Below are positions 15,001 through 56,642 of a DNA stretch of 56,642 nucleotides, one piece after another. Origin of the DNA: a virus (lineage: Duplodnaviria; Heunggongvirae; Uroviricota; Caudoviricetes); the IMG/VR virus record IMGVR_UViG_2917461297_000001, positions 1-56,642 of that record; one strand, written 5' to 3'. The translations under genes were made by a program, and so were the position numbers. The stretch's first letter is position 1, and the number at the start of each line of letters is the position of its first letter. The notes below the pieces were generated by a model that ran no database searches, was not told where the DNA came from, and saw only the letters and a list, made by a program, of their open reading frames with translations.

Positions 15001-16486
15001 ATTCTGGTGAAAGAAAACGCTTAGGATTCATTGACTCAATCAATGATTTCTTTTCGTCTTCATAGTTTTTCATACGTCGCTCAATAGTAGCAACTACTCT
15101 TGACTGGTCGTCAACTAACTTTTTGTACTTCTCATAGTTGTATTTTCTTTCTAATTTTTCTCCTTCTAAATCCTCATAATCGTTTTTAGAAGAACGTGTT
15201 AATACAACTCTGTATTCTGGTCTAGTACTTAATGTTTCAATCGTATATTTTAATTTATCTTTATACTTTAAAGCGTCTTGAAAATCACCGGCGTCAATCT
15301 TGAGGTATAACCAATCGTTAGTTGGAACATCATAGACTTGACCTTGGAATCTGATACGTGATAGGTGACCTAAGTTTTGAATCATCAACACATAATATGA
15401 TGATTTCTCAACGATAATATCAAAACTACTAGACTTGATACCTAAATCAATGTATTCAGATTTAGGAGTCAACAACTCTTTGCGTTCTCTCAATCGTTCA
15501 AATGTAGCTGCTAATTGATTTAATTTAAATTTTTCATTAGAATGGTCAGCTAAAATATCAGTGTATCGTTTACTGAATGCTTCAGCTTCTTCTTTTTTAG
15601 AATCATAATATTCTTTATAATCCAATAGGGCGTGAGCTAACTCATCTGACATATAATCACTATGCTTAATAACATTTCGTTCTACATCTCTTTTGAAAGG
15701 GTGGAGGAAATAAGAGAAGTCTTCGATATAATCAGTTCCGGCAGGATTAACACTTTGAATTGTCAAACCGTTATTGCCAAACGGATATAGTCTTGTTATG
15801 ATGTCTTTTGAAACAAATGAATCTTCAAATGATTTTAAATAACTATTTTCTCTTATTCTTAGACCACGATTCACACCTACGTTTTCTTTATGATAGAACG
15901 ATATTTCACGGTTGTTGTTGTCAAATACAGCCACCGAATCAAATAATCCATTAAGTTGCTCAATCAATCCCATAACGGTTGTAGTTTGAGCTGTTAATTC
16001 TCTCTTTACATCATTTAATTTACTGTCAATTGATTTAACAGACCATAAAGGGGCATATGTTTTTAACACTTCATTCATCGAATTTTCTAAAGTAGAACCT
16101 AATAATTCAACCTCGTTTGCCGATTTTTTAGATAATTCGTTGCAAAGTGAGTCGGCTGTTACTTCAATTGAATCAGATTCGGTAGAAACTTTCTTGATGT
16201 CATCAATTACAAATGTATCTTTAAAACCATTATATTGATATTCAATTAGATATTTGTTCTTGATTAAATCAAAAATAGGATTCTTTTTCTCTTCATGTTC
16301 TAATTCATCGAACACTACCGGTGCGATTTGAAAACTGATTTGGTTAATATTCGTGTGTTTAAACGTTCCTTGTAATTTGGTGAAGCCTGTAATACGTTCT
16401 ATTCGTGTATAGTCTGGTTTTAACAACCATAATTTTGGCTTTGGTCTATCTTCAAAATCAAAAGTAAAATGTTTATTTAAAGCCAT
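9074..16486 (-). CDS. Tal-like tail protein (prophage endopeptidase-type hub) with long helical repeats and CBM-like modules
   Basis: N-terminal IITRLYPFGNNGL motif of prophage tail endopeptidase-type proteins; repeated D.IIT..EK helices; GNRNLL/RNMLSN CBM openers; GGAGGG RBS supports ATG 16486 (MALNK) rather than 16513. Confidence 0.85.
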   Translation of the reverse strand: MALNKHFTFDFEDRPKPKLWLLKPDYTRIERITGFTKLQGTFKHTNINQISFQIAPVVFDELEHEEKKNPIFDLIKNKYLIEYQYNGFKDTFVIDDIKKVSTESDSIEVTADSLCNELSKKSANEVELLGSTLENSMNEVLKTYAPLWSVKSIDSKLNDVKRELTAQTTTVMGLIEQLNGLFDSVAVFDNNNREISFYHKENVGVNRGLRIRENSYLKSFEDSFVSKDIITRLYPFGNNGLTIQSVNPAGTDYIEDFSYFLHPFKRDVERNVIKHSDYMSDELAHALLDYKEYYDSKKEEAEAFSKRYTDILADHSNEKFKLNQLAATFERLRERKELLTPKSEYIDLGIKSSSFDIIVEKSSYYVLMIQNLGHLSRIRFQGQVYDVPTNDWLYLKIDAGDFQDALKYKDKLKYTIETLSTRPEYRVVLTRSSKNDYEDLEGEKLERKYNYEKYKKLVDDQSRVVATIERRMKNYEDEKKSLIESMNPKRFLSPELYKEREQFVYGAIWTEENHTEAKELYDDAIKQMKKQKILNRTLNISVVNFIQSLEDKHSWDKLVAGDIITFSNKAFDEKLKAYITDIQINFDENNVTLTVSDVIDYKNSAEVVSELIASTASSAAQVNFHKEQIREQKGKLTRMSQLIEAEWDANKKRVLAGNETVDIGSHGVKVISNENPSEFVIMVGGVIAMTKDNGETFKTGITPDGVNAEMLIGKMIVGESLTMENESGSFRFDKDGLTIDKSSFHLTSSEGEDYFDKLKKEIAEESKVKNDLIRDEFDRKLNVAISEAIDVEGIVNETSDIIKETFADGIITDVEKRLIKDTLTTLEKENSEFKQQVEQAYNHPYILSEDIIKLDEAIAVYNGIYESLVTNINESISDSKITPQESKSVNDSLIQYREEVKDILVILQEIMERNLNNQLNQVINESHDYADKISLDIKDELKDLSKSINDADEYIKGAFSDNIFDSIEIENIKTMLLIVVSELEDITNRHNTVSNNEKLPTELKSTLDASYSTLQQNHEEFVNYVQSMIEDGRSDEQEKSNYKEKYENYKTSIATFEDEYSKAILAISDKYSKDAEGRLQGKFDSLKEEIDNDLRDIKQNITEFESLLGDSFKDGIITAQEKIRIQVHLDMLDREFTDVEEQYKILLASKYINQNIRDLVSAKRSPYVATHTNLRRLLTSVIEDSKVTQEEKNQVDELLRTYSTKLSEYSAAITDALNKMSVNIASDVAATQLEKFNAVVQQVNEEIDSLQKQVDGAIETFYYPYAPTLTNVPAKDWNTNTLKEAHVGDFFLNTKSGVAYRFVKEGGNYSWKAIEDQVITEALNNSKNALDVADGKRRVFISEPTPPYDSGDLWTQGQAGDILVSIGKKLQGQLYNPNDWVKASKYTDDTTANRAISELNSFKESVNGDLRDLKSSSERLQREVVSSFEDKIISAEEKASLKSLMRIIPIERTRITKQGETVKNSKNLPLEYKNRVTNSLQTLTDNLNQLSEAVSNAIADNKITEVESASVERLFTSYNNSLNDYEKIINEAIDAMIFKAAESEAKKVQDRFDQWKSSEFSVESERIASRVSGSEWRTTYLPQIEGKIDGIQIGNRNLLPSYQTNSQIYYKSNGVSVTGKYTISMINGQRLGIRLYDDYNLSLEPNTDYVFKVHENSDNVTVGVFYNKGSNTIVAYSNNKTIKFNTKNYQNIYIVILSNSNSQTVGKISLYKGNKELDWTPSPEDFESALSEVETKIQNNTSFIEQNKERITSSVSRTELNTQLEKVASYEQSYQITRNNAETLIEHLGSTFEDKYSYEVTARTRNNSTATSATAIFTSKGVGRGFELTILDEKGTTGIHPKFELKNNSIPAINTYGNYSSVTTIDVIYTKYLGTETNIQKVNSKIEQAADSINIEVKELKEKSELRNMLSNTDFAVPNAYWSDTSTNPNFSFPELDEMSINSNNNLLLNNGFNNTVVGSNNYKRVEMKLTEPLEVGSTYTLQFETENDANISVISVIPHFPESQSYTVNISGQKRITLNIRATAASTSMLFYVGQQHSTNNTASMSVSRATLVKGNQPLPYEAGKSHRVTKLTYTNNNKWDALATPMLPVGDNLEYSVGDELTFSAYLYVPSRAKELMNGTPYIELATYENISQSSNPNFTRIAVQPSEIVPDKWFRVQTTGVIPATSPNGKTKFMRALLRYEGVNNSPDSDLFFYYGLPMLEKGNEAMKWTLSPSDLFDPSGLASKIALSPSSIDLISKNLNINTDLTVIKNTEGNVEISGDTIKISKNSKEDSVSISPDGITVIKDGVTKIQNSYDTNVNNVQAYEPQFYSSNAIYSISDTRYNHKPHVSTGADGLYGLDWGTYSLGRKYKQLIESSGKSWARVNRYTYEYNKRYLVVHLSCYTSDDDIMLHLRWRTETGGDTLHEEKISSKRYVFPRITIDLEKKLGKKPDNSTGYFELQAGLSQGTYNAQYGGFRITRMTMTDSK

Positions 16487-16511
16487 TTGTTTCCCTCCAA
16501 TTATTTTGTGC

Positions 16512-16546
16512 AAAAATAAAAAGCCACGACTATAAATGCCATGGCT
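16512..16546 (-). terminator. Terminator closing the nucleotidyltransferase cassette
   Basis: Minus strand AGCCATGGC-ATTTATA-GTCGTGGCT-TTTTATTTTT. Confidence 0.75.
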
Positions 16547-19478: not shown

Positions 19479-22400
19479 TTAAATCGTTCCTTTTTTTCTT
19501 AATGCGTTTTCTAATGTGCCTACTAAATCATCAACTTCTTTTTTGCTTCCATTGAAGTTCTCGATATTAACTAATGACTTGGCTTGAGTATTATTGTTTG
19601 TAGTAACATTAGTTGATTTCCCAATGTCTTTAGGTTTAACAATATCTTTAATCTGTAGTCCATTGAGGATTGCTGAAGGCGCTACTGCGTTAATTTGCTT
19701 GATAGCTGCGGCAGTAGCTTCACTTAAAGGCTTAGGTTTAAGGTTTGAATTAGGTACTGGATTGCCGCCTTTATCTTGTTTTTGTAGTAATTGTGCAACT
19801 TCCAACAAGTTTTTAAACGTCTCATCAATACCATCGATAATATTTTGTCCCACTGAATTACCAATATCTTTCATATTGTCAGAAACAAATTTAGTTAAAT
19901 CTTCAACCATTGATTTATACTTATCAATCTGACCAGCCATAAGCTCTTCTTGTATACTATTGAATCTTCTTGTGTCTTCTAATAAGTCAGTAAACGCTTT
20001 ATTTAAATCTTCTTTCTGCTGTGTTAATTGGTCGTTTTTGTCTTGAAGTTCATCTTGCAACGCTTGTTTGCGGTCTTCTCGATTCTTGTTTCTCAAATAG
20101 GCTTCATATTCTTCTTCACCTTGTCTGAGTTGTTCACGTAAGTCTTTAAGTTTCTTCTGGTTAGCTAAACTATCATCACCAAGACGTTGTGCAATCTCAT
20201 CTCTAATTTTGTTGAGATTTTCTGTTTTCTCCTTAACATCTTTTTGGAATGTTTCTTGTTGTGCTTCTTCATCAATTAATTTTAATTTCTTATTAATTAA
20301 TTTTTCGTATTCTTTATACTCGTCATCATACGCTTTGGTAGCAACTTCTAATTGTTTTTGATAAACAGATTTCATTGAGTTGATAATACTGTTTGCTAAC
20401 TCAAATCTTAGGTTGTGTAATGACTTATTGTTCTCTTGAAGAGCATTAGTAATTTCTTCAATTGAATCTTTAATCTTTTCAGACTGAGCTGGTAACTTCT
20501 TGTACAACTTTAATTGTTCCTCGAGTTCCTTTTTGTTCTTCTCTAATGCTTGTTGCTCTTTGGCATAGCCGTTAAGCATTTTTTCTTGACCGTCTCTAAA
20601 TAAATCAATTTGGAACTCTGAGTTTACAAATGCATTTTTATATTCAGCTTTTCTTAGTTCAGCTTGAAATTCTTTTAACCTACGAGCATTGATAGTTAAT
20701 TGGCGCTCGATTGCTACGTCAGCTGCTTCTTTTAAGAACTCATGAGCCGAGAGGGTAGCGTCATCATAAGCTGTCTTCATATCTTTGATTTGATTAGTTA
20801 AACGTTTCTTAAGTTCTGCATTTTTCTTAACTTTCTTAGCTTGTGTTTCCAGTTGAGTTATGTAGAATTTTGTTTTCTCAGCAAGTTTAGTTGCTTCTTT
20901 GTGTTGTTGAGTGGTTAAATCAACTAAAGTTTTGGCTTGGTCTACGTTAGCTGGGTCAAGATGACCTTTCTTCTTACCAATTGAGTCAATACTTCTTTGT
21001 ATCTTTTCCGTATCTTTAGTGTAATCCTCAATAATTTGGTCAATTAATGAAGCAATAATTTCACCACGGGCACGCATGATACCTGAAGCAATATCTCTTA
21101 CGTTTTGCTGAGCTTCTCGTTTAACTTTCTCCAATTCGTCTCTGTAAGCTGTCTGTTTACCTAATATACCGCCTTTATTCTGTTTAATAACTTTGTCGAT
21201 ATATTTAATCTTATCTTGTTCCCAACCTTTTTCTAATTCTTTAGAAGTTTGAAGTTGCTCATTCTTTTTACGCCATTCTTTACTGTTGCGACCTTGTTCA
21301 AACTCAATTTTGTTAAGCTCATATTCATATTTAGCTGATTTAGCTGCTTGTAGTTCTCTAGAATGGTCGAAAGAGGCAATATTAGATTTATGAATATTAA
21401 ACAAGTTCTCTTTTTTGGCTTGCATATTTCTTACTAATTCAAGTTGTGTATCCATGAGTTTTTTACGTAACTCATCAACTTTTTGCTTCATTTTTTCAGA
21501 CTCGTTATGTTCGTTAATGCCGGCTTCAATTTCAGCTAACATTTGTTCTTGCGCTTGGTTATAACTATCGACCATAGCTTGTGATAACTCGCCAGCAGGT
21601 ATATCTAGATTACCAGTGCTTCTAAAATCAAATTTTCCGTTGTCTCCAGCAATTCTTAGATACGGCTCCGGATTAATTGCTCTGTTCCAACCAGTAAATG
21701 AGGTGCCAGCTGCAGTAAAACCTTTGCCTTCGTTGACTTGGAAGTGCAAGTGGGGACCTGTAGAATTACCAGTATTTCCCATTCTACCAATCATTTGACC
21801 AGCTACAACTTGTTGACCTTTTTTAACACGTAAATCACTTAACATATGCATATACGTAAAAGTTTTGTTTAATTTAGGATTATAAATAACTACTTGGTTA
21901 CCTCCACCATAGTTACTCCAACCAGATGATAACACTATACCACCACGTGAGGCTTTAATAGGTGAGCCGACACTAGATGCATAATCGACACCGTAGTGAG
22001 GTGTATTAGTTCCATAATAATGTCCGAATGGTGCCGTTTTTTTCCAACCAGCGACTATGCTTTGTCCTGCATTAGAAACTTTAACAGCACTTCCACCATT
22101 AGTGCCTTTAAACTGATTATAGTACCTATTAGCCGCCGAATTACGTTGTCCTTGAGCAACAACGCCAGCACGTTCAAATTTACGTTGGAATGCATCGGCA
22201 GCGCCAATGACCGAACCTGATGCTTTTAACGCATTTAGTGCTCCACGTTCTGTTGTTTGTAATTCTTGCCATAAGAAATCTAATTGTGTATTCAAGTCAG
22301 CCCAAGATTTACCACGTCTTTTTGCAAAGTTTCTGAGGTTATCAGCACGACCAAACGACCATTGTACTAAACCGATACCTGTACCATTAGGTTCTTTAGC

Positions 22401-25400
22401 ATTAGGTAGGAATCTTGACTCACGCTCAATGTTACCCATAATACCGGCAACCGCATGTTCAGATAATCCTTTACCACGTAAATAATTCCAAACTTTCTCT
22501 TGAGTGGTTGAGCCAACAGCGCCAATTGAAGCTGTTTTACCACCATCTAAACCGTTAGCTGTAAATTTCAAATATGGTACATTGTAATCACTATTCACCA
22601 GTCCATACTCAATAACTTGACCAGCTTTAATTTGCTCTTGCATGGATTTGATTTGTTCATTAAGTTTCTTAGTTTTCTCGTCAATTAACTTATTTTCTGC
22701 TTTCAATGAGTCACGATATTTTTGAGACCAAACAGCATATTTTTGTGTATTTAGCTTCTGTTTCTCTAATTGGAAGTTCACCTTATCTAAAGCCATTTGC
22801 AATTCATCAGCGACATATGTAGTAACAGTGAAAGTCTTGTATAGTTTCTCAACACTTACACCGGCAGAAGCTGCTTCTTTTTCGAGCTTATCTGCTTCTT
22901 TAGACGCTTTGTCCATTGCTTTTCCGGCTTTACCTAAGCCTTTGGAGGCTTTGTTTCCACCTTTACCAGTTTTATCAAGACCATTACCTAAATCTTTTGC
23001 TACCGAGCCTAATTTACCAGCTGAGTCAGCTGCTTGTTTAAAAACTTTGTCTCCTCCAACTATACTATCAATAGCGCCATCAATAGTCTGTCCAATTTGC
23101 CATGAATAAGTTAAGTTAGCAACTGTTGAGTCAGTAGCGGCTTTAGCAGCATTCCAACTCTTTTCAATATAATCAGCGTATTCTGCGGAGTTAGTATCTT
23201 TAGGGGCTTCAGGAATATCAGCGAATGCTTCGTCAGCAATCCTACGCAATTCATTAATATGTGCTGCCCATTTCTTACCTAGAGCTTGTAAAATAGCTTT
23301 TTCTAAAGCGTCTTTTTTCTTTCCTAAAGTTCCGTAGTTCGATAAATCGACGCCGTAATGTTGAGCAATTTGATTAACTAATTTTTCTTGTTGTTTTGCA
23401 GAGCCGTGGTTGTATACATCAGTAATTCCAGCTTTTAATTCAGTTAAAGTATTATAATTACTTGCATCAATTCCGTAAGTTTGCATTAAATGGTCAGCTA
23501 GTTCTGTACCTTTTCCAGCTACAGACTTATAATACGCTTCACTATTGTCCAACTTCTTTTGTAAGTTAGCATTGAAATTTTCAGTTTCTTCATCTTGCTT
23601 TGATTTAATAAACTCAGTTAATGCTTCATGGTTGTTAAATACACCTAAAACTTCTTCACCATATTTTTCAACCAAGCTAGTTAAATTATTCCACGACAAA
23701 TCGCCTTCAGATAATTCTTTAAGTGAATTATTTAAAAGCTCATGAGTGTCTCCGGTTTCTCTTAGTGAATTAGCAAGCTGTTTATTAGCCTCTGCTTGCT
23801 TCTCACTAGCCTCTGCATTATCTTCTTTCGCAACTGTGTTCTTGTCCACCGAATTTGTATTAGCATCAATTTTCTTTGCAGTGTCAATAGAAACTTGACC
23901 AGATTTGCTTATTGATGCGGCATAACCCGTCTCAGTTTCAATATTAGTTTCTAAACTTTGTTTTAACTTATTTTGCTCTTCTTTTGAAAAATTGGCAGCT
24001 CTAGCAGCGTCTAAGATTGCTTGTGCTACCTTGGTATAAGCAGCTTGCAATACTGGCAATCTATCTGCTCGTTCTGTCTCATTTTTGGCATTTTTAAAAC
24101 TATTTAATGCAGCTTCATATTCTTGCATTTTGCTCGCAAAACCGGCATCTTGTGTTAATAAACCGTTTAATGTAGAAAATGTGTTCTTTGCATCTTCACC
24201 CGATTTAGCAAACTCTCGTACAGATGTGCTTAAAGAAATTAGGATTGCTTTTCCAGAATCACCAATAGAATAATTAGCTGTCTTAATTTGTTCGATTTGA
24301 GAGGTAAATAGTCTAGCTTGTGCGTCAATTGCTGCATTGTCAGTAGCAGTAGCTTGAGCTTTTTTACTTTTATACGTATCAAGAGCACTGATAATTCTAT
24401 CAAGAGAAGAAATACTTTCTTGGTCTCCATTTTTTCTTGCTTCAGCTAAAAGTTTTTGGGCTTCTGCCTGTCTTTTTTCTGCTTCTTCTAGAGATTTAAC
24501 TTTATCGATTCTAGTTTGTAATTGATAAATCTCGTTATTATTACCGTTTGGTGTCCCGACTGAACCAGCACGTTCTCTTAATTTTGTTTCTGGATTCTTT
24601 CCTAGCCCCCAAAAACCGCCATTATTTATATTCTTAGCTTCTTTAACTGAATCATCATACTGTTTACGTAAATCAGCTTCATTTTTAATACGAGCGTTTT
24701 CTTTCTCAATCTCAAGTTGCTGTTTCATGAGCTCGACACGCTCTTTTAATGTATTACTATTAGCTGATAGAGTAGCACCATATTGACCTTCAGAAGATAC
24801 TAAATCCGGAAAAATATTCTTAATTTGAGATACAGTTTCTTTATATTGAGCTGCTTCAGTATCATCAAACGATTTACCCGAACGCATTTTGTTCTCAAGT
24901 TCTGTATATCTATCAATTAATTTATCAATTTCACCAGTACCGCCCATACTTTCGATAGTCTGTTTGAGCGTATCTTGTTGCATTTTATAATTCTCAGCGG
25001 CATTTGAAGCACTATCAAATTTGGAGATAACCTTTTCCAGTACAAACGATATACCAGCAATTGCTGCACCGACTAAAGTGGCTGAAGCTAATCCACGCAT
25101 AGCTGCTTTAAATCCATTCACCGCAACAGTTGCTACTTTACTAACTGTTGCAGTAGCTGTCGTCTTAATATTGTTAGTATTTAATGCACTTGAAGTTAGT
25201 AGGGCTTGTGTGGTTAATGTTTTTTGTGAATCCGCAAAAGCTAGGGTAGATGTACTAGCTGCTTTTGCTTTAGAAGCTGCCATGTCATATTTCTCAAGTG
25301 ATTCGTCCATCACTAATTGAGACACTGCTCCAACTTGATTATCTTTAATTCTACCTTTATTGCCTTCAAGCACCATTCTCTCAATAACTGTGCCATCATT

Positions 25401-28025
25401 TTTCTTCATTTTTTGAGTAACTGACTCTAAGTCGTTAGCTTCTGCAATGAAGTTAGCAATACTAAGTCTGGCGTCTTCAAAACCACCTCTAACATTCTTA
25501 GAGAATAGTGACATCGTTCCTGCTAGTGTACCAATTAATACTGAGGTTGAACCTAATTCTTGCACATGTCTTGTTAAACCAGTCATTAAATTAGTGAATA
25601 ATCTTAGTCCGTCTAACATTCCAGATTTAACAAAAGCATCGCCGATAGCAACTGCAAATTGTTCAATTGAAACTTTAGCTCTATTGACCTTAGCTTCAAC
25701 AGACTCTAAATATTTCTGGTTCTCGGCAATAGCGGAACCCGCAGAGTTTTCTGATGTGTTTTTAATCTGTTTGTATAGTGAGTCTGCTTTCGACAAGTCG
25801 TCTAATAATACTTGCATACGTTGGTAATGGTACGTTCCACCAAGTCCACGTATTACAGCAGCTTGTTGGTCTTTATCAACATTTTTAATTTTTTCTGATA
25901 CTTCTTCTAATAAGGTAATTGCACTTTTCAGCTGTCCGTTGGAATCTTTCATATTGATTCCCAAATCAGTAATAGTGTTTTTACCTGTGCCTACATAAAG
26001 TTTAGGTAATACAGCTTTTAAGAAGTTACCAATTTCGTCACCAGATTGCTTAGTCTTTGCAGTTAAAGCACCAACAATGGCGTTAGTCTCGTCAAAAGTT
26101 AGCCCCATTGATTTAGCAGTAGAACCAGCTTTTGCTTGACCTTGTGCTAATTTTTCAACAGTAGTCGCATATTCATTCGAGATTTGGTTGAGCGAGTCGA
26201 CTTGTCTCATAGCGTCAGTAGCTGATGTTTCCCACTGAGCCGACATCGACGTTAAATATTCTGATGCTTGTTTTGCATCAATTTCACCAACATTGGAAGC
26301 TATTAAGGCTGCATTACCAAATACTGTGGTATCAGCTTCGTCATAACCTTGTCTAGCGAACTCCGCATATACATCTAAAACGTTACTAATAGTTTGACCA
26401 TATTGTAAAGCTGCATCATTAGCTCGTAAGAATACAGATTCTAAATCAGCATTATCATTCATTACTTTTGATAAAGTAACCATTTTAGAGTCAATATCTG
26501 AGATGATTGATAAGAAGTTTTGACCACTTCTAATCGCACCAAAAAACAGAGTAGTAGCACCCATCCAAACAGGGAATTTAATCATTGCTTGTCTAAACGA
26601 CTCAACAAAACCTAGCTGTGACCTTGTAGCACGTTCAGCTTCTGCCGTAATAGTTCTGACTTGTCCTTGAATTTGAGACATTTGAAAAGCTGCTTCTTTT
26701 CCAAATGTACCACTACCATTTGAGTTAAGGTTTTGTAGTTGACCTTTTAACTGTGAAGTAGCACGTTTATCAATCGTACTTGTTAAACGACGTTCTGCTC
26801 TATCAATTTGTGCTAACAATGAAACTTGTTGATTTAATAATTTATTTTGTTGAGAATAACCAAGTAATAAGCCATCTGCGCTTTGTTTTACTTTGTTGAA
26901 CTCGGTTGATAATTTTGTAACGTCGCCACTATTTATTCTTTCTTTTAGCCCAGTATAATTATTAGTAGCGTCCTTTGCTTGACCTTTGCTAATTTTACCT
27001 TGAGCCTCTAATTTATTAATTCTTTCAAGTTCTTTTGAAATTGCTGATTGAATCTTTTCTTGCTCTTTCAATTGCTCGTTTTGTAATGTATACTTCTTAA
27101 GCAATATGTCTGCTTCAGATTTAGCTTTAGTGAATTGTTCTGGGCTAATCACTTTATTTTCTTTAGCCAAATGGCTTAGCTGGCTATATGCATTTTTAAT
27201 CTTTTCGGCTTGAGAAGTAGATAACTTTTGTTTTTCAACCATTCTGTCTAAAGCACTTACTTCTTGCTCCATAGATTTAACCATAGAATCATGAGTTAAT
27301 TTTCGTGCTTTTTCTTGAGAGTTTAAGTTAGCTATTTTTTCTAAACTTAACGAACCGTCGTCGTTTGCTTTGTAGTTGTAGCTTTCTCTGCCTAATGTTT
27401 TTCCTAATTCGCTTACTCTTTGTAAATTGACTTGGTATGATTGTAATGCACCGTTAGCGTCTTTGATAGACTTAATTTCAGTACGTAAAGAATTATCTCT
27501 TACGTTAGAAAGCTCGCTACTTAATTTGCTTACATCTGAGTAAGTTTTTTGCAGTTGTAGCATCGAATTATTTATTTTTTCAATTTCTTGAGCTTGCCCT
27601 TTAGAAGTCGTGGAGGATACTGCGCCAAAACCTTTTTGTGCATTTGTTGATATTGACTTACCAGCTTTTTGAGCGGCATTAGTATCCACATTTGCATCAA
27701 TATTAACTTTAATTTTATTCTTTGATAAGCTATCAGATAGCGTTGAAATAGCTTTTTTAATATTTTGCTTACTTTGAGTTAAGTTTACATCTAAGTCAAC
27801 TTTAACTTTCCTCAATTGACTTGATTTGTTTAAACTGTCTATAACACTATTGGCACTTTTTCTTAAATCATTTGAAGCACCTTTAGTTTGTCTGGCTTCA
27901 AATTCAACAGAAACCTTGTTTATATTCTTTTCGATTTCTTTAATCGTTTCGTTTATTTGCTTACGAGAGGAGCTTGAATCAACGTCTAAGGTTGACAAAA
28001 TTCCAATATTAAATCCATTTGCCAA
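19479..28025 (-). CDS. Tape measure protein with phage-tail lysozyme and M23 peptidase domains
   Basis: TP901-type core (IDSKMVTLSKV...VDSLNQISNEYA); AVAGIMGNIERES...GIGLVQWS lysozyme; HYGVD...YMHM...STGPHLHFQV M23; AGGAG RBS favours TTG 28025 over 28052. Confidence 0.93.
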   Translation of the reverse strand: MANGFNIGILSTLDVDSSSSRKQINETIKEIEKNINKVSVEFEARQTKGASNDLRKSANSVIDSLNKSSQLRKVKVDLDVNLTQSKQNIKKAISTLSDSLSKNKIKVNIDANVDTNAAQKAGKSISTNAQKGFGAVSSTTSKGQAQEIEKINNSMLQLQKTYSDVSKLSSELSNVRDNSLRTEIKSIKDANGALQSYQVNLQRVSELGKTLGRESYNYKANDDGSLSLEKIANLNSQEKARKLTHDSMVKSMEQEVSALDRMVEKQKLSTSQAEKIKNAYSQLSHLAKENKVISPEQFTKAKSEADILLKKYTLQNEQLKEQEKIQSAISKELERINKLEAQGKISKGQAKDATNNYTGLKERINSGDVTKLSTEFNKVKQSADGLLLGYSQQNKLLNQQVSLLAQIDRAERRLTSTIDKRATSQLKGQLQNLNSNGSGTFGKEAAFQMSQIQGQVRTITAEAERATRSQLGFVESFRQAMIKFPVWMGATTLFFGAIRSGQNFLSIISDIDSKMVTLSKVMNDNADLESVFLRANDAALQYGQTISNVLDVYAEFARQGYDEADTTVFGNAALIASNVGEIDAKQASEYLTSMSAQWETSATDAMRQVDSLNQISNEYATTVEKLAQGQAKAGSTAKSMGLTFDETNAIVGALTAKTKQSGDEIGNFLKAVLPKLYVGTGKNTITDLGINMKDSNGQLKSAITLLEEVSEKIKNVDKDQQAAVIRGLGGTYHYQRMQVLLDDLSKADSLYKQIKNTSENSAGSAIAENQKYLESVEAKVNRAKVSIEQFAVAIGDAFVKSGMLDGLRLFTNLMTGLTRHVQELGSTSVLIGTLAGTMSLFSKNVRGGFEDARLSIANFIAEANDLESVTQKMKKNDGTVIERMVLEGNKGRIKDNQVGAVSQLVMDESLEKYDMAASKAKAASTSTLAFADSQKTLTTQALLTSSALNTNNIKTTATATVSKVATVAVNGFKAAMRGLASATLVGAAIAGISFVLEKVISKFDSASNAAENYKMQQDTLKQTIESMGGTGEIDKLIDRYTELENKMRSGKSFDDTEAAQYKETVSQIKNIFPDLVSSEGQYGATLSANSNTLKERVELMKQQLEIEKENARIKNEADLRKQYDDSVKEAKNINNGGFWGLGKNPETKLRERAGSVGTPNGNNNEIYQLQTRIDKVKSLEEAEKRQAEAQKLLAEARKNGDQESISSLDRIISALDTYKSKKAQATATDNAAIDAQARLFTSQIEQIKTANYSIGDSGKAILISLSTSVREFAKSGEDAKNTFSTLNGLLTQDAGFASKMQEYEAALNSFKNAKNETERADRLPVLQAAYTKVAQAILDAARAANFSKEEQNKLKQSLETNIETETGYAASISKSGQVSIDTAKKIDANTNSVDKNTVAKEDNAEASEKQAEANKQLANSLRETGDTHELLNNSLKELSEGDLSWNNLTSLVEKYGEEVLGVFNNHEALTEFIKSKQDEETENFNANLQKKLDNSEAYYKSVAGKGTELADHLMQTYGIDASNYNTLTELKAGITDVYNHGSAKQQEKLVNQIAQHYGVDLSNYGTLGKKKDALEKAILQALGKKWAAHINELRRIADEAFADIPEAPKDTNSAEYADYIEKSWNAAKAATDSTVANLTYSWQIGQTIDGAIDSIVGGDKVFKQAADSAGKLGSVAKDLGNGLDKTGKGGNKASKGLGKAGKAMDKASKEADKLEKEAASAGVSVEKLYKTFTVTTYVADELQMALDKVNFQLEKQKLNTQKYAVWSQKYRDSLKAENKLIDEKTKKLNEQIKSMQEQIKAGQVIEYGLVNSDYNVPYLKFTANGLDGGKTASIGAVGSTTQEKVWNYLRGKGLSEHAVAGIMGNIERESRFLPNAKEPNGTGIGLVQWSFGRADNLRNFAKRRGKSWADLNTQLDFLWQELQTTERGALNALKASGSVIGAADAFQRKFERAGVVAQGQRNSAANRYYNQFKGTNGGSAVKVSNAGQSIVAGWKKTAPFGHYYGTNTPHYGVDYASSVGSPIKASRGGIVLSSGWSNYGGGNQVVIYNPKLNKTFTYMHMLSDLRVKKGQQVVAGQMIGRMGNTGNSTGPHLHFQVNEGKGFTAAGTSFTGWNRAINPEPYLRIAGDNGKFDFRSTGNLDIPAGELSQAMVDSYNQAQEQMLAEIEAGINEHNESEKMKQKVDELRKKLMDTQLELVRNMQAKKENLFNIHKSNIASFDHSRELQAAKSAKYEYELNKIEFEQGRNSKEWRKKNEQLQTSKELEKGWEQDKIKYIDKVIKQNKGGILGKQTAYRDELEKVKREAQQNVRDIASGIMRARGEIIASLIDQIIEDYTKDTEKIQRSIDSIGKKKGHLDPANVDQAKTLVDLTTQQHKEATKLAEKTKFYITQLETQAKKVKKNAELKKRLTNQIKDMKTAYDDATLSAHEFLKEAADVAIERQLTINARRLKEFQAELRKAEYKNAFVNSEFQIDLFRDGQEKMLNGYAKEQQALEKNKKELEEQLKLYKKLPAQSEKIKDSIEEITNALQENNKSLHNLRFELANSIINSMKSVYQKQLEVATKAYDDEYKEYEKLINKKLKLIDEEAQQETFQKDVKEKTENLNKIRDEIAQRLGDDSLANQKKLKDLREQLRQGEEEYEAYLRNKNREDRKQALQDELQDKNDQLTQQKEDLNKAFTDLLEDTRRFNSIQEELMAGQIDKYKSMVEDLTKFVSDNMKDIGNSVGQNIIDGIDETFKNLLEVAQLLQKQDKGGNPVPNSNLKPKPLSEATAAAIKQINAVAPSAILNGLQIKDIVKPKDIGKSTNVTTNNNTQAKSLVNIENFNGSKKEVDDLVGTLENALRKKGTI

Positions 28026-28059
28026 AATTTTCACTCCTTGTGTTTTCTTCACCGTACTT

Positions 28060-46514: not shown

Positions 46515-48788
46515 ATGAAAAAAACTTTTAGAGAGTTTGAAGAAGAATTAACAGTAACTAAGGAGCTGTTTTACAATGAGGGGAGCATGTATGGTGCATA
46601 TGGTTTTAAATTCGCTGATGAGATTAATCCAGAAGTAAAATTGCATTCTACATATAAGAATTTTACAATCGTTGGAAATACACCGGCGTTAATTGAAGGT
46701 AATTCATATAAGGTGAGATTTATTGAAGGCTTTGATGAAAGAAGAAATGTTGACGTTTACAATTTTGTCGAAGTAAAGTCTGATGGTTTGAAAGACAGAA
46801 AGTCTCAAGAAGAATTCTTATATCAAATCTTAACTGAAAAGCAAGCGAGAGATATTTTATCATCTTTTCCAAACGAGAACATTATTGAGGATATTATTAA
46901 TAAGAAAATCAACTTAACTACGGTTCATGGCATTCAAGAAGCAACCGCAGCAAAGATAATCGCAAAACTATTGAACTACAATGAATATAGCAAAGCGATT
47001 GTAGCGCTTTCTCCTTTAGGTGCCGGCATTAAAAGTGTCATCAAATTATCGGAACACTTTGGTAGTCCAGAGAAAGTCGTGCAGATTGTTAAAAACGACG
47101 TCTATAAATTAACTGAGGTATCTGGTTTTGGGTTCAAAACTGTAGACCAATATGCTTTAAAACAAGGTGTATCTCCTAAAGATAAACGACGTATTGTGGC
47201 AGGTGCATTGTACGTTATTGAGCAAATCGTTGGTTACGGAGACACAAAAATTCCAATCGATAAGTTTGAAAAAGATTTATGTGACATTTTGGGTATTGAT
47301 GAGGTCGATGATAAAGTATTTGAAGAGATTATTAACCACAATGCTATTTACTATAACGAAGGATTTATTACTTTACATACATACAGAAATGAAGAAAAGC
47401 AAATTGTTGGTCACTTAAGAAGATTACGAGACGGTTTTATCCCTAATAATATTGATGAAACGATTGTAGAAAAGTTAGAAGAGGAACAAGGTTTTAAGTT
47501 CAACAAAGAACAACGAGAAGGAATTGAGAAAGCTATAACAAATGGGATTTTTGTCCTAGACGGTAAAGCGGGTTCGGGGAAAACAAGTTTACTAAGAGCC
47601 GCTGTTGAAAGTATCGAAAATAACCACGCTGCATGTAGCTTATCAGGTAAAGCGGCTAATGTACTTTCTATGAACGGATTAAATGCTAGTACAATTCACA
47701 GATTGCTAAAATTCGAACCTACAACTGGTGGCTTTTTTCATAATGAACTCAACCCGTTACCATCAGCTGTCTACATTTTAGATGAGGCATCTATGGTTAA
47801 TAACAAACTATTTTTAGATTTAATCAGTGCAATTCCATCAGGTTCGCCACTCATTATTGTCGGTGATAGTGGACAATTACCAGCAATTGGACACGGTGCA
47901 GTATTTGATTATTTATTAAGTTCTACTGAGTTTGCTCACGTAACATTGAAAGAAGTTCATAGACAAGCGCAAGATTCAGGTACTTTGAGTGCTGCCAACA
48001 TGGTTCGTGAAGGAAAACAAATTATTAAATATAACGAAAGTGGTAGAAAAATCTCGGGAGCTAGTAATGATTTCTATGAGAATTATTATCGAGATAAGTC
48101 TTTAATCTTGAATGACGTACTTCAAACAGCACAACGCTATGCTGATAATCCGGAAATGAGAAATGAAGATTTTCAAGTAATTGTCGGATTGAAAGAAAAG
48201 GGTGACTATTCAGTCCTAAATATGAATAAGCATTTACAAGAAATTTTTAACCCAGCTTCTAGTGGAAAAGAAGAGATTAAAGGTTTAAAGCATACGTTTA
48301 GAAAAGGTGACAGAGTTATTCAACAAGGTAACAACTATGGTGTAACAATTATGAGTCAATCTAATTTTGTAATGTATAGTAACAAGTTTATTGATAGAGA
48401 AGAAGCTGAACACGCTTCTGCTGCTGTGTTTAACGGCACATTTGGCACGATTTTAGAATGTGTAGAAGGCGTGGGTATGTTGATTAAGTTTGAAGGAATT
48501 GACGAGCCAGTGTTCTACGCTAAGAATGAAAATGATAATGAAATCGGTGTATTAGATTTAGGTTACGCTATTAGTGTGCATCGTTCTCAAGGGTCAGGTT
48601 TTAAAACACTGCTAGTCATTGTAACGTTTAACGAATTTGCATTATTGAGTAGACAATTTTTGTATACTGCTTTAACTCGAACAATTGATAAATGTTTATT
48701 GTTTGCTGAATCAGGAGCAATTGTACAAGCAATTAAGACAGACAAAGGTAAAAGCAGAAAATGTTTTATGGGTGAATTTTTGAAATAA
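46515..48788 (+). CDS. recD2: RecD2-like SF1B helicase
   Basis: N-terminal OB-like region, HhH motifs (VHGIQ, VSGFGFKTVD), Walker A GKAGSGKT, ILDEASM, GDSGQLPAIG, HRQA, LGYAISVHRSQGSGF, LYTALTR. Confidence 0.92.
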   Translation: MKKTFREFEEELTVTKELFYNEGSMYGAYGFKFADEINPEVKLHSTYKNFTIVGNTPALIEGNSYKVRFIEGFDERRNVDVYNFVEVKSDGLKDRKSQEEFLYQILTEKQARDILSSFPNENIIEDIINKKINLTTVHGIQEATAAKIIAKLLNYNEYSKAIVALSPLGAGIKSVIKLSEHFGSPEKVVQIVKNDVYKLTEVSGFGFKTVDQYALKQGVSPKDKRRIVAGALYVIEQIVGYGDTKIPIDKFEKDLCDILGIDEVDDKVFEEIINHNAIYYNEGFITLHTYRNEEKQIVGHLRRLRDGFIPNNIDETIVEKLEEEQGFKFNKEQREGIEKAITNGIFVLDGKAGSGKTSLLRAAVESIENNHAACSLSGKAANVLSMNGLNASTIHRLLKFEPTTGGFFHNELNPLPSAVYILDEASMVNNKLFLDLISAIPSGSPLIIVGDSGQLPAIGHGAVFDYLLSSTEFAHVTLKEVHRQAQDSGTLSAANMVREGKQIIKYNESGRKISGASNDFYENYYRDKSLILNDVLQTAQRYADNPEMRNEDFQVIVGLKEKGDYSVLNMNKHLQEIFNPASSGKEEIKGLKHTFRKGDRVIQQGNNYGVTIMSQSNFVMYSNKFIDREEAEHASAAVFNGTFGTILECVEGVGMLIKFEGIDEPVFYAKNENDNEIGVLDLGYAISVHRSQGSGFKTLLVIVTFNEFALLSRQFLYTALTRTIDKCLLFAESGAIVQAIKTDKGKSRKCFMGEFLK

Positions 48789-54063: not shown

Positions 54064-54615
54064 ATGGAAAACAAACAAAATGAAAACAAAATTCAGTTTA
54101 ATCTTTTTATCAGCGATTTAACTGAATACAATGCTGGTAATCTTGTTGGTAAATGGTTCGATGCACTTACTGAATTCGATGCAATGAGCACATATATCAA
54201 CACTATTGCTGGTAAAGGTAATGAATGGTTTATTTCAGATTCTGAAAGTGACTTGCTTGAAGTAAGTGAGTTTCATTCAATTGATGACATTGGGGAAATG
54301 GTAAAAGTCATCAAAAAAGCGACATTCGACAGTTTTGTCGCAACTAAAATAAAAGGAGAGTACGAAAACGCCGACATCATCAAATGTGTTGAAAACAACC
54401 GTGTTTTAATTTTAGACTGTGATGTGTCAGCCTTTGAAGCGCTCGGCTATTACGAAGTGGAAACGTCTTATTTTGAAGAAATAAGACTAGATAATGAATT
54501 CATCTCATCTTATTTCGATTTTGAATCGTTAGGGCGTGACTTGCTTTGGAGTGGCGAATATACGCATATCGGGCGTGATGATGAACATAATCACATTTTC
54601 ATTATAAACTTTTAA
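54064..54615 (+). CDS. ardA: ArdA antirestriction protein (type I RM DNA mimic)
   Basis: FISDLTEYNAGNLVGKWF and SYFDFESLGRDL match the ArdA signatures (YNxGxLVGxWF; YxDYxxxGRDL); highly acidic. Confidence 0.9.
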   Translation: MENKQNENKIQFNLFISDLTEYNAGNLVGKWFDALTEFDAMSTYINTIAGKGNEWFISDSESDLLEVSEFHSIDDIGEMVKVIKKATFDSFVATKIKGEYENADIIKCVENNRVLILDCDVSAFEALGYYEVETSYFEEIRLDNEFISSYFDFESLGRDLLWSGEYTHIGRDDEHNHIFIINF

Positions 54616-54629
54616 AGGAGACGACCACA

Positions 54630-54932
54630 ATGCTAAAAACACTTATAACAGCAAGCACCTTATTACTTTCGCCAAACTCACAAGCGTCACAAACAGACTT
54701 TGACAGTCTCGACGCAAGCACGGAAAGACAGATTGAACAAACACAAAAAACATCAACATCATACGCAATCGCTGAGGACGCTCAAAGGTTAAGAGTGTTC
54801 AAGCATGCGGAAGATTCAAAAATGTTGAACAAAAATCAGCAATATACAATTTACAGTAACAACCTTGTCAAAGGCGCTGTGTACAAAATCACTTACAAAG
54901 GTGATTACGTTAAATCAATTGAAGTAAACTAA
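54630..54932 (+). CDS. Hypothetical protein, possibly exported
   Basis: AAGGAG RBS; short hydrophobic N-terminus. Confidence 0.65.
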   Translation: MLKTLITASTLLLSPNSQASQTDFDSLDASTERQIEQTQKTSTSYAIAEDAQRLRVFKHAEDSKMLNKNQQYTIYSNNLVKGAVYKITYKGDYVKSIEVN

Positions 54933-54975
54933 AAAAGTTAAAAAATAAAATAATATAAAAATGGGGGAACATAAG

Positions 54976-55320
54976 ATGTTATATGAGTATGAAATGAAAA
55001 CATTTAAAAACGCTGAGGAGCTAAAAACAAAATACCCAAAAATTTATAATGAATTACTAGCTGAAAAAGGGGGTGGAGAATGGGAAAACGAAGAATTATT
55101 CTTATTCCCGACCGCAACAGATTTTGCACAATATGAGGTTTTCGAAGGCTGGTATGGTCTCGGTTATTTTGCAAATGAAATCAGTGGGGGCAATGCGCCC
55201 GATTTGTTCGAATATATTGATTATGAAGAGTTAACGCCCGACTTAATAAATTCATGGGACGACAGCATTTTCCACAAAACAAAAGATAATCAAATTGTTA
55301 GAACTGGTTTCGGCTGGTAA
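54976..55320 (+). CDS. Acidic protein resembling the C-terminal half of ArdA
   Basis: TDFAQYEVFEGW...APDLFEYIDYEEL..DL; GGGGGA RBS favours ATG 54976. Confidence 0.65.
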   Translation: MLYEYEMKTFKNAEELKTKYPKIYNELLAEKGGGEWENEELFLFPTATDFAQYEVFEGWYGLGYFANEISGGNAPDLFEYIDYEELTPDLINSWDDSIFHKTKDNQIVRTGFGW

Positions 55321-55377
55321 ATCGACATATAACGCAATAACAAAAAAATCACTGTGAAAACGAGGAGAAAAATAAAA

Positions 55378-55716
55378 ATGAAATTTAACGTAAGAGTTAT
55401 AATGAAGCAATTCACAAAATTTAATGAAAAATTACAAGACTGGAGCGGGGACGTAATTACTACCGGCGGTTTTAACCTCGGTGAATCAAAAAGCAATAAT
55501 TTTTATGATGTTCTTGAGGTCCTGCAAGATTACTATGATGTTGAAGAAAACGACATTGATATTGATACGTCATCCGATGGACAAATAACATATTTAACAT
55601 TTTCTATCGTTGAAGATGCGAACGGGCTACCCGTACCCGAAACAGACGGTGAGTATTTAACAGACTATTTTGTTGTTGTTGAAAAAACTGAGATTGTGCC
55701 ATTTGTTAAAAATTAA
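55378..55716 (+). CDS. Acidic hypothetical protein
   Basis: GAGGAG RBS favours ATG 55378; D/E-rich. Confidence 0.7.
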   Translation: MKFNVRVIMKQFTKFNEKLQDWSGDVITTGGFNLGESKSNNFYDVLEVLQDYYDVEENDIDIDTSSDGQITYLTFSIVEDANGLPVPETDGEYLTDYFVVVEKTEIVPFVKN

Positions 55717-55743
55717 AAAATTATAAAATTAGGAGTGTTTGAA

Positions 55744-56058
55744 ATGAAATTAGTACAAAATTTTAAAATTGGTGTTAATGTCGAAATAATCGACATTAAC
55801 AATTATCTTGAATTTGCAGAGCACTATAACGTACCTCGATTAAGCGAAGAATATTTGAAAAATACAGTTTTTACTATTGTTAATGAAGAGGTTTTATATA
55901 AAGAATTTGACGCAAGCGACGAACCATTTGACGTTAAACAATTTGAGTTAATGGACGAAAAAGGTTACAAATTAGCGTTAATGTTAGACGATTGGGCGCT
56001 TGTTAAAGCTGAGGAGGAAATGAAAAATGGAATTAAAGACAATTACAAAACACGCTAA
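55744..56058 (+). CDS. Acidic hypothetical protein
   Basis: AGGAG RBS favours ATG 55744; D/E-rich. Confidence 0.7.
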   Translation: MKLVQNFKIGVNVEIIDINNYLEFAEHYNVPRLSEEYLKNTVFTIVNEEVLYKEFDASDEPFDVKQFELMDEKGYKLALMLDDWALVKAEEEMKNGIKDNYKTR

Positions 56059-56642
56059 AAAGATAACAAAAAACACAAAAAATCGAATTTTAAAGTATAT
56101 GCACCTTAACGATAATCTTATTGATTTTACAGACGGTCATAGACTTGTGAGAATAAACCATCAACATGAATATAACAATATGCTAATCAATCCTAAAAAC
56201 GAAAATGATAAGAGTAGAAGCGAATACCCTTATAATTTTCCTAATTTTGAAAACGTAATTCCGAAAGATGACGACGTAAAAAATGTTATTATTTTTATTG
56301 ATGGTGAAATCAATATCATTTTAAACGTACTTAAATTATTTAAAAATTTAAAAGTTAAATTAGTACAATTAGAATTGAATGAAAATGATAATTATTTATT
56401 GACTGCTTACTCAGGGAATGATGAAGAAGCGCAACGTTTAGAATTGTCATATACTTTCTATAACAAAAAAATAGATAATAATGATGTGAAAAAGATTGTT
56501 CTAAATACAGAATACTTGTTAAACGCTTTTGAGTTTCTAAAAGATTTTGACAAAGCTAATAATGAAGATTTTTATTGTTTAAATCTTTATGGTAGAATTC
56601 AACCAATAAAAATTACTGACAAAAGCAACACTTTTGATTATG
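56027..56642 (+). CDS. Beta sliding clamp (DnaN)-like protein lacking domain I; runs off the window end (not in ORF track)
   Basis: GAGGAGG RBS, ATG 56027, open to the window end; TDGHRL at residues 35-40, FPNFENVIP, LNTEYLLNAF, L.LYG..QPIKI match DnaN domains II-III. Confidence 0.75.
   Translation, partial: MELKTITKHAKKITKNTKNRILKYMHLNDNLIDFTDGHRLVRINHQHEYNNMLINPKNENDKSRSEYPYNFPNFENVIPKDDDVKNVIIFIDGEINIILNVLKLFKNLKVKLVQLELNENDNYLLTAYSGNDEEAQRLELSYTFYNKKIDNNDVKKIVLNTEYLLNAFEFLKDFDKANNEDFYCLNLYGRIQPIKITDKSNTFDY

Follow-up and report, generated by a model that had tools for sequence, protein, structure and literature searches.

The window analysed here is a 56,642-nucleotide stretch of viral DNA (IMG/VR record IMGVR_UViG_2917461297_000001) that corresponds to G000:C1:1053637-1110278 of a single-contig, 2.8-Mb genome. 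Our subject is an open reading frame (ORF) at its right-hand edge, on the plus strand, which opens with an ATG at 56027 and remains open to the last base of the window. An earlier note on this DNA, made from the letters alone, had picked out the ORF as one missed by the gene list because it runs off the window, and had described its product as a two-domain relative of the bacterial beta clamp. The ORF is real, and its 3' end was recovered from the genome. The stop lies at G000:C1:1110304, 26 nt past the window, with the last eight residues (VIMPIRAV) and the stop codon at G000:C1:1110279-1110304, giving a protein of 213 amino acids that we refer to as the mini-clamp. The mini-clamp is a true homologue of the DnaN-type beta clamp, and it keeps just the unit of DnaN that forms the pocket for the clamp-binding motif (CBM), namely the first half of domain II and all of domain III. 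The gene and its translation signal are as follows.

56011 to 56017, plus strand: ribosome-binding site GAGGAGG, read from the sequence, 9 nt before the start codon.
56027 to 56642, plus strand: mini beta-clamp gene, residues 1-205 of 213, identified from the ORF list, the genome extension, PHROG 6615 and DnaN homology.

Annotated close homologues occur in Staphylococcus pseudintermedius and S. delphini, and four alleles from S. pseudintermedius prophages gave dN/dS values (ratios of non-synonymous to synonymous substitution rates) of 0.17-0.26. Because of this purifying selection, we regard the mini-clamp as a maintained gene and not as a decayed dnaN. Within its family, which has already been annotated, it represents a divergent and new allele carried by S. 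pseudintermedius prophages.

The start of the gene overlaps the end of an upstream 107-amino-acid ORF (55735-56058) by 32 nt (56027-56058) in a different frame, with the ribosome-binding site inside the upstream gene. This arrangement suggests translational coupling of the two ORFs. Promoter and terminator scans around the mini-clamp gene produced nothing above shuffled expectation.

A DnaN homologue of about one and a half domains

The mini-clamp matched PHROG 6615 with an E value of 8.1e-23, residues 2-205 of the part inside the window falling on profile positions 5-206 of 214. When 1.8 billion cluster representatives were searched exhaustively, 58 relatives were returned (50%-identity clusters, E up to 1e-3), with no full-length DnaN among them. 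All but four of these are 189-231 amino acids long and cover the query end to end; the remaining four, at 91-115 amino acids, are apparent fragments. A family profile and alignment were built from 56 of the 58. Against DnaN crystal structures, the profile reached E values down to 2e-23 (B. subtilis DnaN), compared to 6e-5 for the best PCNA match, and hhalign of the profile against the host's own DnaN gave a probability of 99.1%. The DnaN C-terminal domain, PF02768, was matched singly by 26 of the 56 family members. When the mini-clamp sequence was used alone, it stayed under threshold for every Pfam DnaN model, with only sub-threshold noise, and phmmer against PDB sequences found nothing relevant. 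Since single-sequence searches are blind to this homology, the relationship to DnaN is seen only by family profile or by fold.

The AlphaFold2 (AF2) model of the mini-clamp had a mean predicted local distance difference test score (pLDDT) of 93.7 and a predicted template modelling score (pTM) of 0.91, and the top Foldseek matches to it were all DnaN beta clamps. Alignment with VIA-align gave Z scores of 17-18.6 and root-mean-square deviations of 2.5-3.0 Å, placing model residues 1-212 on E. coli DnaN 133-366; structurally, 188-192 residues aligned over this 234-residue DnaN span. The BFVD model of Bacillus phage Sam46 gp53 also matched the mini-clamp model, with a template modelling (TM) score of 0.78. 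The absence of a clamp fold had been set out beforehand as grounds for dropping the proposal; profile and fold searches both recover that fold. Overall identity to the host DnaN is 17% (32/189), so the gene was not captured recently from the host's dnaN. The mini-clamp shares with DnaN (PF00712 + PF02767 + PF02768; structures 4TR6 from B. subtilis and 1MMI from E. coli) its fold, its pocket residues and a C-terminal P-x-R motif. At 213 amino acids it is much shorter than DnaN (366-380 amino acids), and two segments of the gene account for its architecture.

56027 to 56230, plus strand: residues 1-68, a remnant of DnaN domain II with one helix, a four-stranded sheet and the last strand, from AF2 secondary structure and alignment gaps.
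56231 to 56642, plus strand: residues 69-205 (continuing to 213 past the window), a complete equivalent of DnaN domain III, from the family profile and PF02768.

Positions 65-202 of the family profile correspond to B. subtilis DnaN 247-380, all of it domain III (domain E value 2.5e-16), while positions 14-58 correspond to the start of domain II only. Alignments against host and E. coli DnaN left approximately 40-45 residues of domain II, around host DnaN 201-243, without a counterpart in the mini-clamp, and what is retained of domain II is limited to DnaN 133-200 plus the last strand. The deleted part is the second helix and the two strands that follow it, and it is absent across the whole family. 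In the AF2 model, one helix and one sheet precede the interdomain segment and a complete two-helix domain follows it, for a total of three long helices. Each mini-clamp chain represents three of a clamp ring's twelve beta-alpha-beta-beta-beta motifs and three of its twelve helices.

The claim that domain I is missing held up: PF00712, the domain I model, did not match the mini-clamp protein, and a six-frame search of the whole genome with it found the chromosomal dnaN only, with nothing near the mini-clamp gene. Searching the genome with the family profile returned one short copy and dnaN. A search for tandem or fused long forms among longer proteins returned ordinary three-domain DnaN only. 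The description of a two-domain protein needs qualifying: domain III is complete, but only about half of domain II is present, leaving approximately 1.5 domains. The trimer of two-domain subunits proposed from that description, in the style of PCNA or T4 gp45, finds no support. These proteins share the clamp fold and a similar chain length with the mini-clamp, but they have two complete domains and four helices per chain and form head-to-tail trimers. With about 1.5 domains and three helices per chain, three head-to-tail copies of the mini-clamp would supply 4.5 domains and not six, so a PCNA-like trimeric ring does not fit.

Two further explanations of the short form were rejected. A decayed full-length dnaN is ruled out by the lack of a nearby domain I in any frame, a dN/dS of about 0.2 and the stable length of the family; in particular, a frameshifted domain I upstream, which would have pointed to such decay, was looked for and none was found. 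The upstream 107-amino-acid ORF was also considered as the supplier of the missing piece. It is unrelated, with no similarity to the family (hhalign probability 0.1%), no Pfam or PHROG match, and other genes take its place in relatives.

The partner pocket and the N-terminal helix

The earlier note had based its assignment on four motifs, and had drawn attention to the partner-binding pocket that lies between domains II and III of DnaN. All four motifs are exact as quoted, and T35 of the first aligns with E. coli DnaN T172, where it had been placed. The alignment to E. coli DnaN puts them in or beside the pocket.

56129 to 56146, plus strand: TDGHRL, residues 35-40, equivalent to E. coli DnaN T172-L177, pocket subsite I, from the alignment and the pocket list.
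56237 to 56263, plus strand: FPNFENVIP, residues 71-79, equivalent to E. coli F241-P249, the interdomain segment with pocket residues P242 and V247, from the alignment.
56501 to 56530, plus strand: LNTEYLLNAF, residues 159-168, in which N160 and Y163 are equivalent to E. coli N320 and Y323, pocket subsite II, from the alignment.
56600 to 56614, plus strand: QPIKI, residues 192-196, in which P193 (95% conservation in the family) is equivalent to E. coli S346, a neighbour of pocket residue V344, from the alignment.

To define the pocket, we used the 18 CBM pocket residues of a published list (review, PMC11139829). The corresponding 18 family columns had a mean top-residue fraction of 0.74, compared to 0.35 for all columns, and 0 of 20000 random column sets reached 0.74. 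The mini-clamp is identical to the host DnaN at 11 of the 18 positions, and most of the others are conservative changes. Viewed from the other direction, 19 family columns are at least 70% conserved, 12 of which are listed pocket positions, and three more lie in pocket-forming segments (D36 = D173, F71 = F241 and P193 = S346 in E. coli). The residues of domain III that contact domain I of the next subunit to close the DnaN ring (E. coli I272, L273 and E298-E304), in contrast, are unconserved in the family. Other conserved features are specific to the family: its N-terminal helix has a K-H pair plus additional lysines, and the first domain III helix has an L-K pair. The mini-clamp is thus ring-incompetent in the DnaN sense, and the pocket, which is retained, is its most constrained feature. 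From this pattern of conservation, the pocket probably still binds a CBM.

The N-terminal helix carries a second feature that sets the family apart from DnaN.

56033 to 56071, plus strand: N-terminal helix, residues 3-15, with a conserved basic stripe (K8, K11, K12, K15) and the family-specific K-H pair, from AF2 and the alignment.

Across the family, the K8 position is basic in 95% of members and the K12 position in 78%. Residues 1-24 have a net charge of +7 here and a family median of +5, compared to 0 in the matching segment of host DnaN. For whole proteins, the isoelectric point (pI) has a family median of 7.3 (range 5.0-9.3), and the mini-clamp is near-neutral (6.5, net charge -1), whereas host DnaN is strongly acidic (4.66, net charge -21). 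At helix positions 9 and 14, host DnaN has the hydrophobic residues V and I (T and I in E. coli), which are replaced in the family by conserved His and Thr. This substitution looks like the adaptation of a cut surface to solvent and not like a hydrophobic pairing surface.

Prophage setting and relatives in other phages

By its gene content, the window is part of an SPbeta-type Staphylococcus prophage. The terminase lies on the minus strand with a YomG-like giant protein. Two giant ORFs of 2479 and 2857 amino acids occupy 9074-16513 and 19479-28052 on the minus strand, in the structural block, and the first has a YomG N-terminal domain, a domain typical of SPbeta-type phages. Facing the minus-strand structural genes, a plus-strand block starts with a RecD2-like superfamily 1 (SF1) helicase at 46515-48788 (AAA_30, HHH_RecD2 and SH3_13 domains). 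The helicase is followed on the plus strand by many small genes, an ArdA-like anti-restriction gene (54064-54615), four small ORFs and the mini-clamp. Downstream of the mini-clamp are genes for a tyrosine recombinase, a DndB-like protein, an MrpR-like repressor, an AAA_24 protein and a DnaB-like helicase. The trio of recombinase, DndB-like gene and MrpR core-binding-domain gene lies beyond the window at G000:C1:1113168-1116777 (L002:5169-8778); MrpR is the SPbeta master repressor. The order of a XerC-like gene followed by two hypothetical genes is the same in Staphylococcus phage SPbeta-like.

A gene for a PolIII-alpha-type polymerase, in two ORFs, lies approximately 40 kb further on. The two ORFs (496 and 831 amino acids, about 300 nt apart) are at G000:C1:1150137-1154421 (L029:3138-7422), again beyond the window. 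The gap between them (L029:4598-4902) aligned over its full length with an Rfam group I intron model at 23.5 bits, below the gathering score of 50 (E 0.0014). The polymerase is likewise in two pieces in Staphylococcus phage SPbeta-like, with open frames of 483 and 828 amino acids. A search with PF13177 for a phage clamp loader found none; its matches above the cut-off were two chromosomal genes approximately 1.5 Mb from the prophage.

The surroundings of the mini-clamp gene vary. The gene just upstream encodes 107, 116 or 208 amino acids in related S. pseudintermedius prophages, and distant relatives have different genes at this position, including one for a metallo-beta-lactamase (MBL)-fold protein and others. 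In the interval between ArdA and the clamp (window 54616-56026; L030:1272-3000, L032:2299-3000 and L033:1044-3000), two to six differing small ORFs were observed, with ArdA and the clamp constant. The interval looks like an early region in which cassettes are swapped. At E values up to 1e-25, the mini-clamp gene was absent from the genomes of 112 other Staphylococcaceae species.

The family belongs to phages and prophages of Bacillota, with relatives in those of Staphylococcus, Bacillus, Geobacillus, Lactobacillus, Enterococcus, Listeria and Paenibacillus. Named members in PHROG 6615 are Bacillus phage Sam46 gp53, Silence gp47, Geobacillus virus E3 gp175 and Staphylococcus phage SPbeta-like gp17. 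The last of these is 37.6% identical to the mini-clamp, has the same gene order from ArdA to the clamp and is annotated 'DNA polymerase III subunit beta'. The family gene in Geobacillus E3 lies among small early genes, beside ArdA, and in Sam46 and Silence it lies between the genes for a recombinase and a single-stranded DNA-binding protein (SSB) and those for DnaD, a loader and DnaB. Of these four complete genomes, two (Geobacillus E3 and Staphylococcus SPbeta-like) encode a C-family polymerase, none has an A- or B-family polymerase, and no A-, B- or C-family polymerase was found in Sam46 or Silence. Lacking all three, Sam46 and Silence must use host PolC/DnaE. The copying enzyme in all four checked genomes, whether from the phage or the host, is therefore C-family, the class that docks in the beta pocket.

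Short phage clamps of this kind have been noted before. The Sam46 copy has been named a PolIII-beta-type processivity factor (PMC8190038), and five short phage PolIII-beta forms were recorded in a 2011 survey, which described them as covering 'the second and third domains' (Kazlauskas and Venclovas, PMC3201878). The mini-clamp belongs to the same family as the named short homologues in PHROG 6615, with an end-to-end profile match, a stable length and the same boundaries, but only half of its domain II is present, which departs from the 2011 description. A 2016 follow-up left open the role of stand-alone clamp homologues in phages that lack a polymerase (PMC4889955). Our literature searches found no functional study of short phage clamps.

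Candidate functions of the mini-clamp

The explanation we favour, tentatively, is that the mini-clamp serves phage replication as a non-ring accessory factor, docking or tethering a C-family polymerase on phage DNA. The pocket would dock a CBM-bearing polymerase of this class. In this prophage the candidates are the split PolIII-alpha-type enzyme of the phage itself and host PolC/DnaE; in the small relatives without a polymerase gene they would be host enzymes only. The basic helix, which corresponds to the DNA side of a real clamp, would help to hold the polymerase on phage DNA without a clamp loader. Support for docking comes from the homology and fold, the pocket, the lack of DnaN-type ring parts, the charge, the lack of a phage loader, the polymerase context, the position of the gene in Sam46 and Silence, and the signature of selection.

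This mode of action would resemble that of the herpesvirus proteins UL42 (a monomer) and UL44 (a dimer), which we propose as an analogy only. According to Kazlauskas and Venclovas (PMC3201878), both have a non-ring clamp fold, work without a loader, and have a polymerase docking site and a basic face on DNA; clamp homologues without a cognate loader tend to a raised pI, like UL42/UL44. There is no sequence relation to the mini-clamp beyond the clamp fold, however, and UL42 and UL44 each have two complete domains and a face that is strongly basic, whereas only the N-terminal helix of the mini-clamp is clearly basic and its DNA binding is putative.

Several observations weigh against polymerase docking. 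The mini-clamp studied here is near-neutral and 12 of the 56 family members have a pI below 6, so a UL42-like basic DNA face is not uniform in the family. The genes around the mini-clamp, in this prophage as in Geobacillus E3, are small early ones with ArdA alongside, and the polymerase is approximately 40 kb away; such an early-cluster position would suit a host-takeover function at least as well. A by-eye reading of the phage polymerase ORFs, which is a weak test, revealed no convincing QLxLF-type motif. Finally, the conservation of the pocket would fit a decoy equally well.

A decoy, which the earlier note had raised as its second option, would be a soluble protein reduced to the pocket that titrates CBM proteins of the host, such as the clamp-loader delta subunit, MutL/MutS, YabA and translesion polymerases. 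Host replication and repair could then be shut down or rewired for the phage, for example by blunting mismatch repair during RecT/Erf-driven recombination. The pattern of conservation is as expected for such a protein, in that the pocket is the most conserved part and the ring-forming parts are lost or unconserved, and the gene lies in an early small-gene cluster beside ArdA in this prophage and in Geobacillus E3 and follows the recombinase and SSB genes in Sam46 and Silence. As a lead only, the Waterfoul gp48 clamp subunit, from a different family, was toxic when overexpressed in M. smegmatis (PMC11797047). However, Sam46 and Silence lack a polymerase and depend on the host replisome, so that titrating the loader, or clamp partners in general, would harm the phage itself, and the conserved basic helix is not obviously needed by a decoy. 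The related suggestion that the protein poisons the host ring is argued against, because the residues that would contact domain I of a partner are unconserved. Overall, we consider a decoy function unlikely.

A bolder version of docking has the mini-clamp act as a loader-independent 'pocket on a stick' that captures host C-family polymerases or other clients from the host clamp, its boldest form being a ring of four copies with D2 symmetry, discussed below. We judge this capture from the host clamp to be quite unlikely.

The mini-clamp may instead be a recruitment adaptor acting outside DNA synthesis, which might, for instance, couple replication to late transcription or bring phage DNA into contact with repair or recombination proteins. 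T4 offers a precedent, its clamp gp45 being a co-activator of late transcription. For phage Mu the host clamp has this role (PMC12867686), and the gene lies here in an operon of small regulatory or early genes. Against an adaptor, no conserved neighbouring partner was observed, as the upstream gene differs among related prophages and across the family, and we find this role doubtful.

The tetrameric ring would be a new assembly in which half-domains pair on a two-fold axis to rebuild a central domain, two such dimers making a D2 tetramer of six domains and twelve helices, with docking pockets on both faces and loading by the host clamp loader. Within DnaN, a pseudo-two-fold axis relates one half of each clamp domain to the other. 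The argument for this ring is geometric, resting on that relation and on the three of twelve motifs and helices contributed by each chain; the retained pocket would also allow the loader delta subunit to bind. Against it, the conserved His and Thr at helix positions 9 and 14 suggest a solvent-exposed face where the missing half-domain would sit, the edge residues of domain III are unconserved, the family pI is well above that of ring clamps, and no tandem or fused form was found. Such a ring is very improbable.

A functionless and dispensable remnant of a host dnaN captured in the past is largely refuted by the selection and family data and has hardly any probability left: although phage PolIII-beta homologues, probably acquired horizontally, were deemed likely dispensable for replication by Kazlauskas and Venclovas (PMC3201878), and the mini-clamp alone falls below every Pfam DnaN threshold, its dN/dS is 0.17-0.26, nearly all of the 58 clusters have lengths of 189-231 amino acids with the same boundaries, the pocket is strongly conserved and identity to the host DnaN is 17%.

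The beta clamp is central to replication and repair in bacteria, and its pocket is a target for antibiotics. A protein that nature has cut down to this pocket could be used to probe which clamp clients are needed or neutralised by phages, and could offer a small scaffold for screening pocket binders. Whether the mini-clamp tethers a polymerase or titrates host proteins is relevant to a question posed in 2016, namely why clamp homologues occur in phages that lack a polymerase gene (PMC4889955). If the mini-clamp does capture clients from the host clamp or assemble into a four-copy ring, this would be a novel mode of assembling or subverting a sliding clamp.

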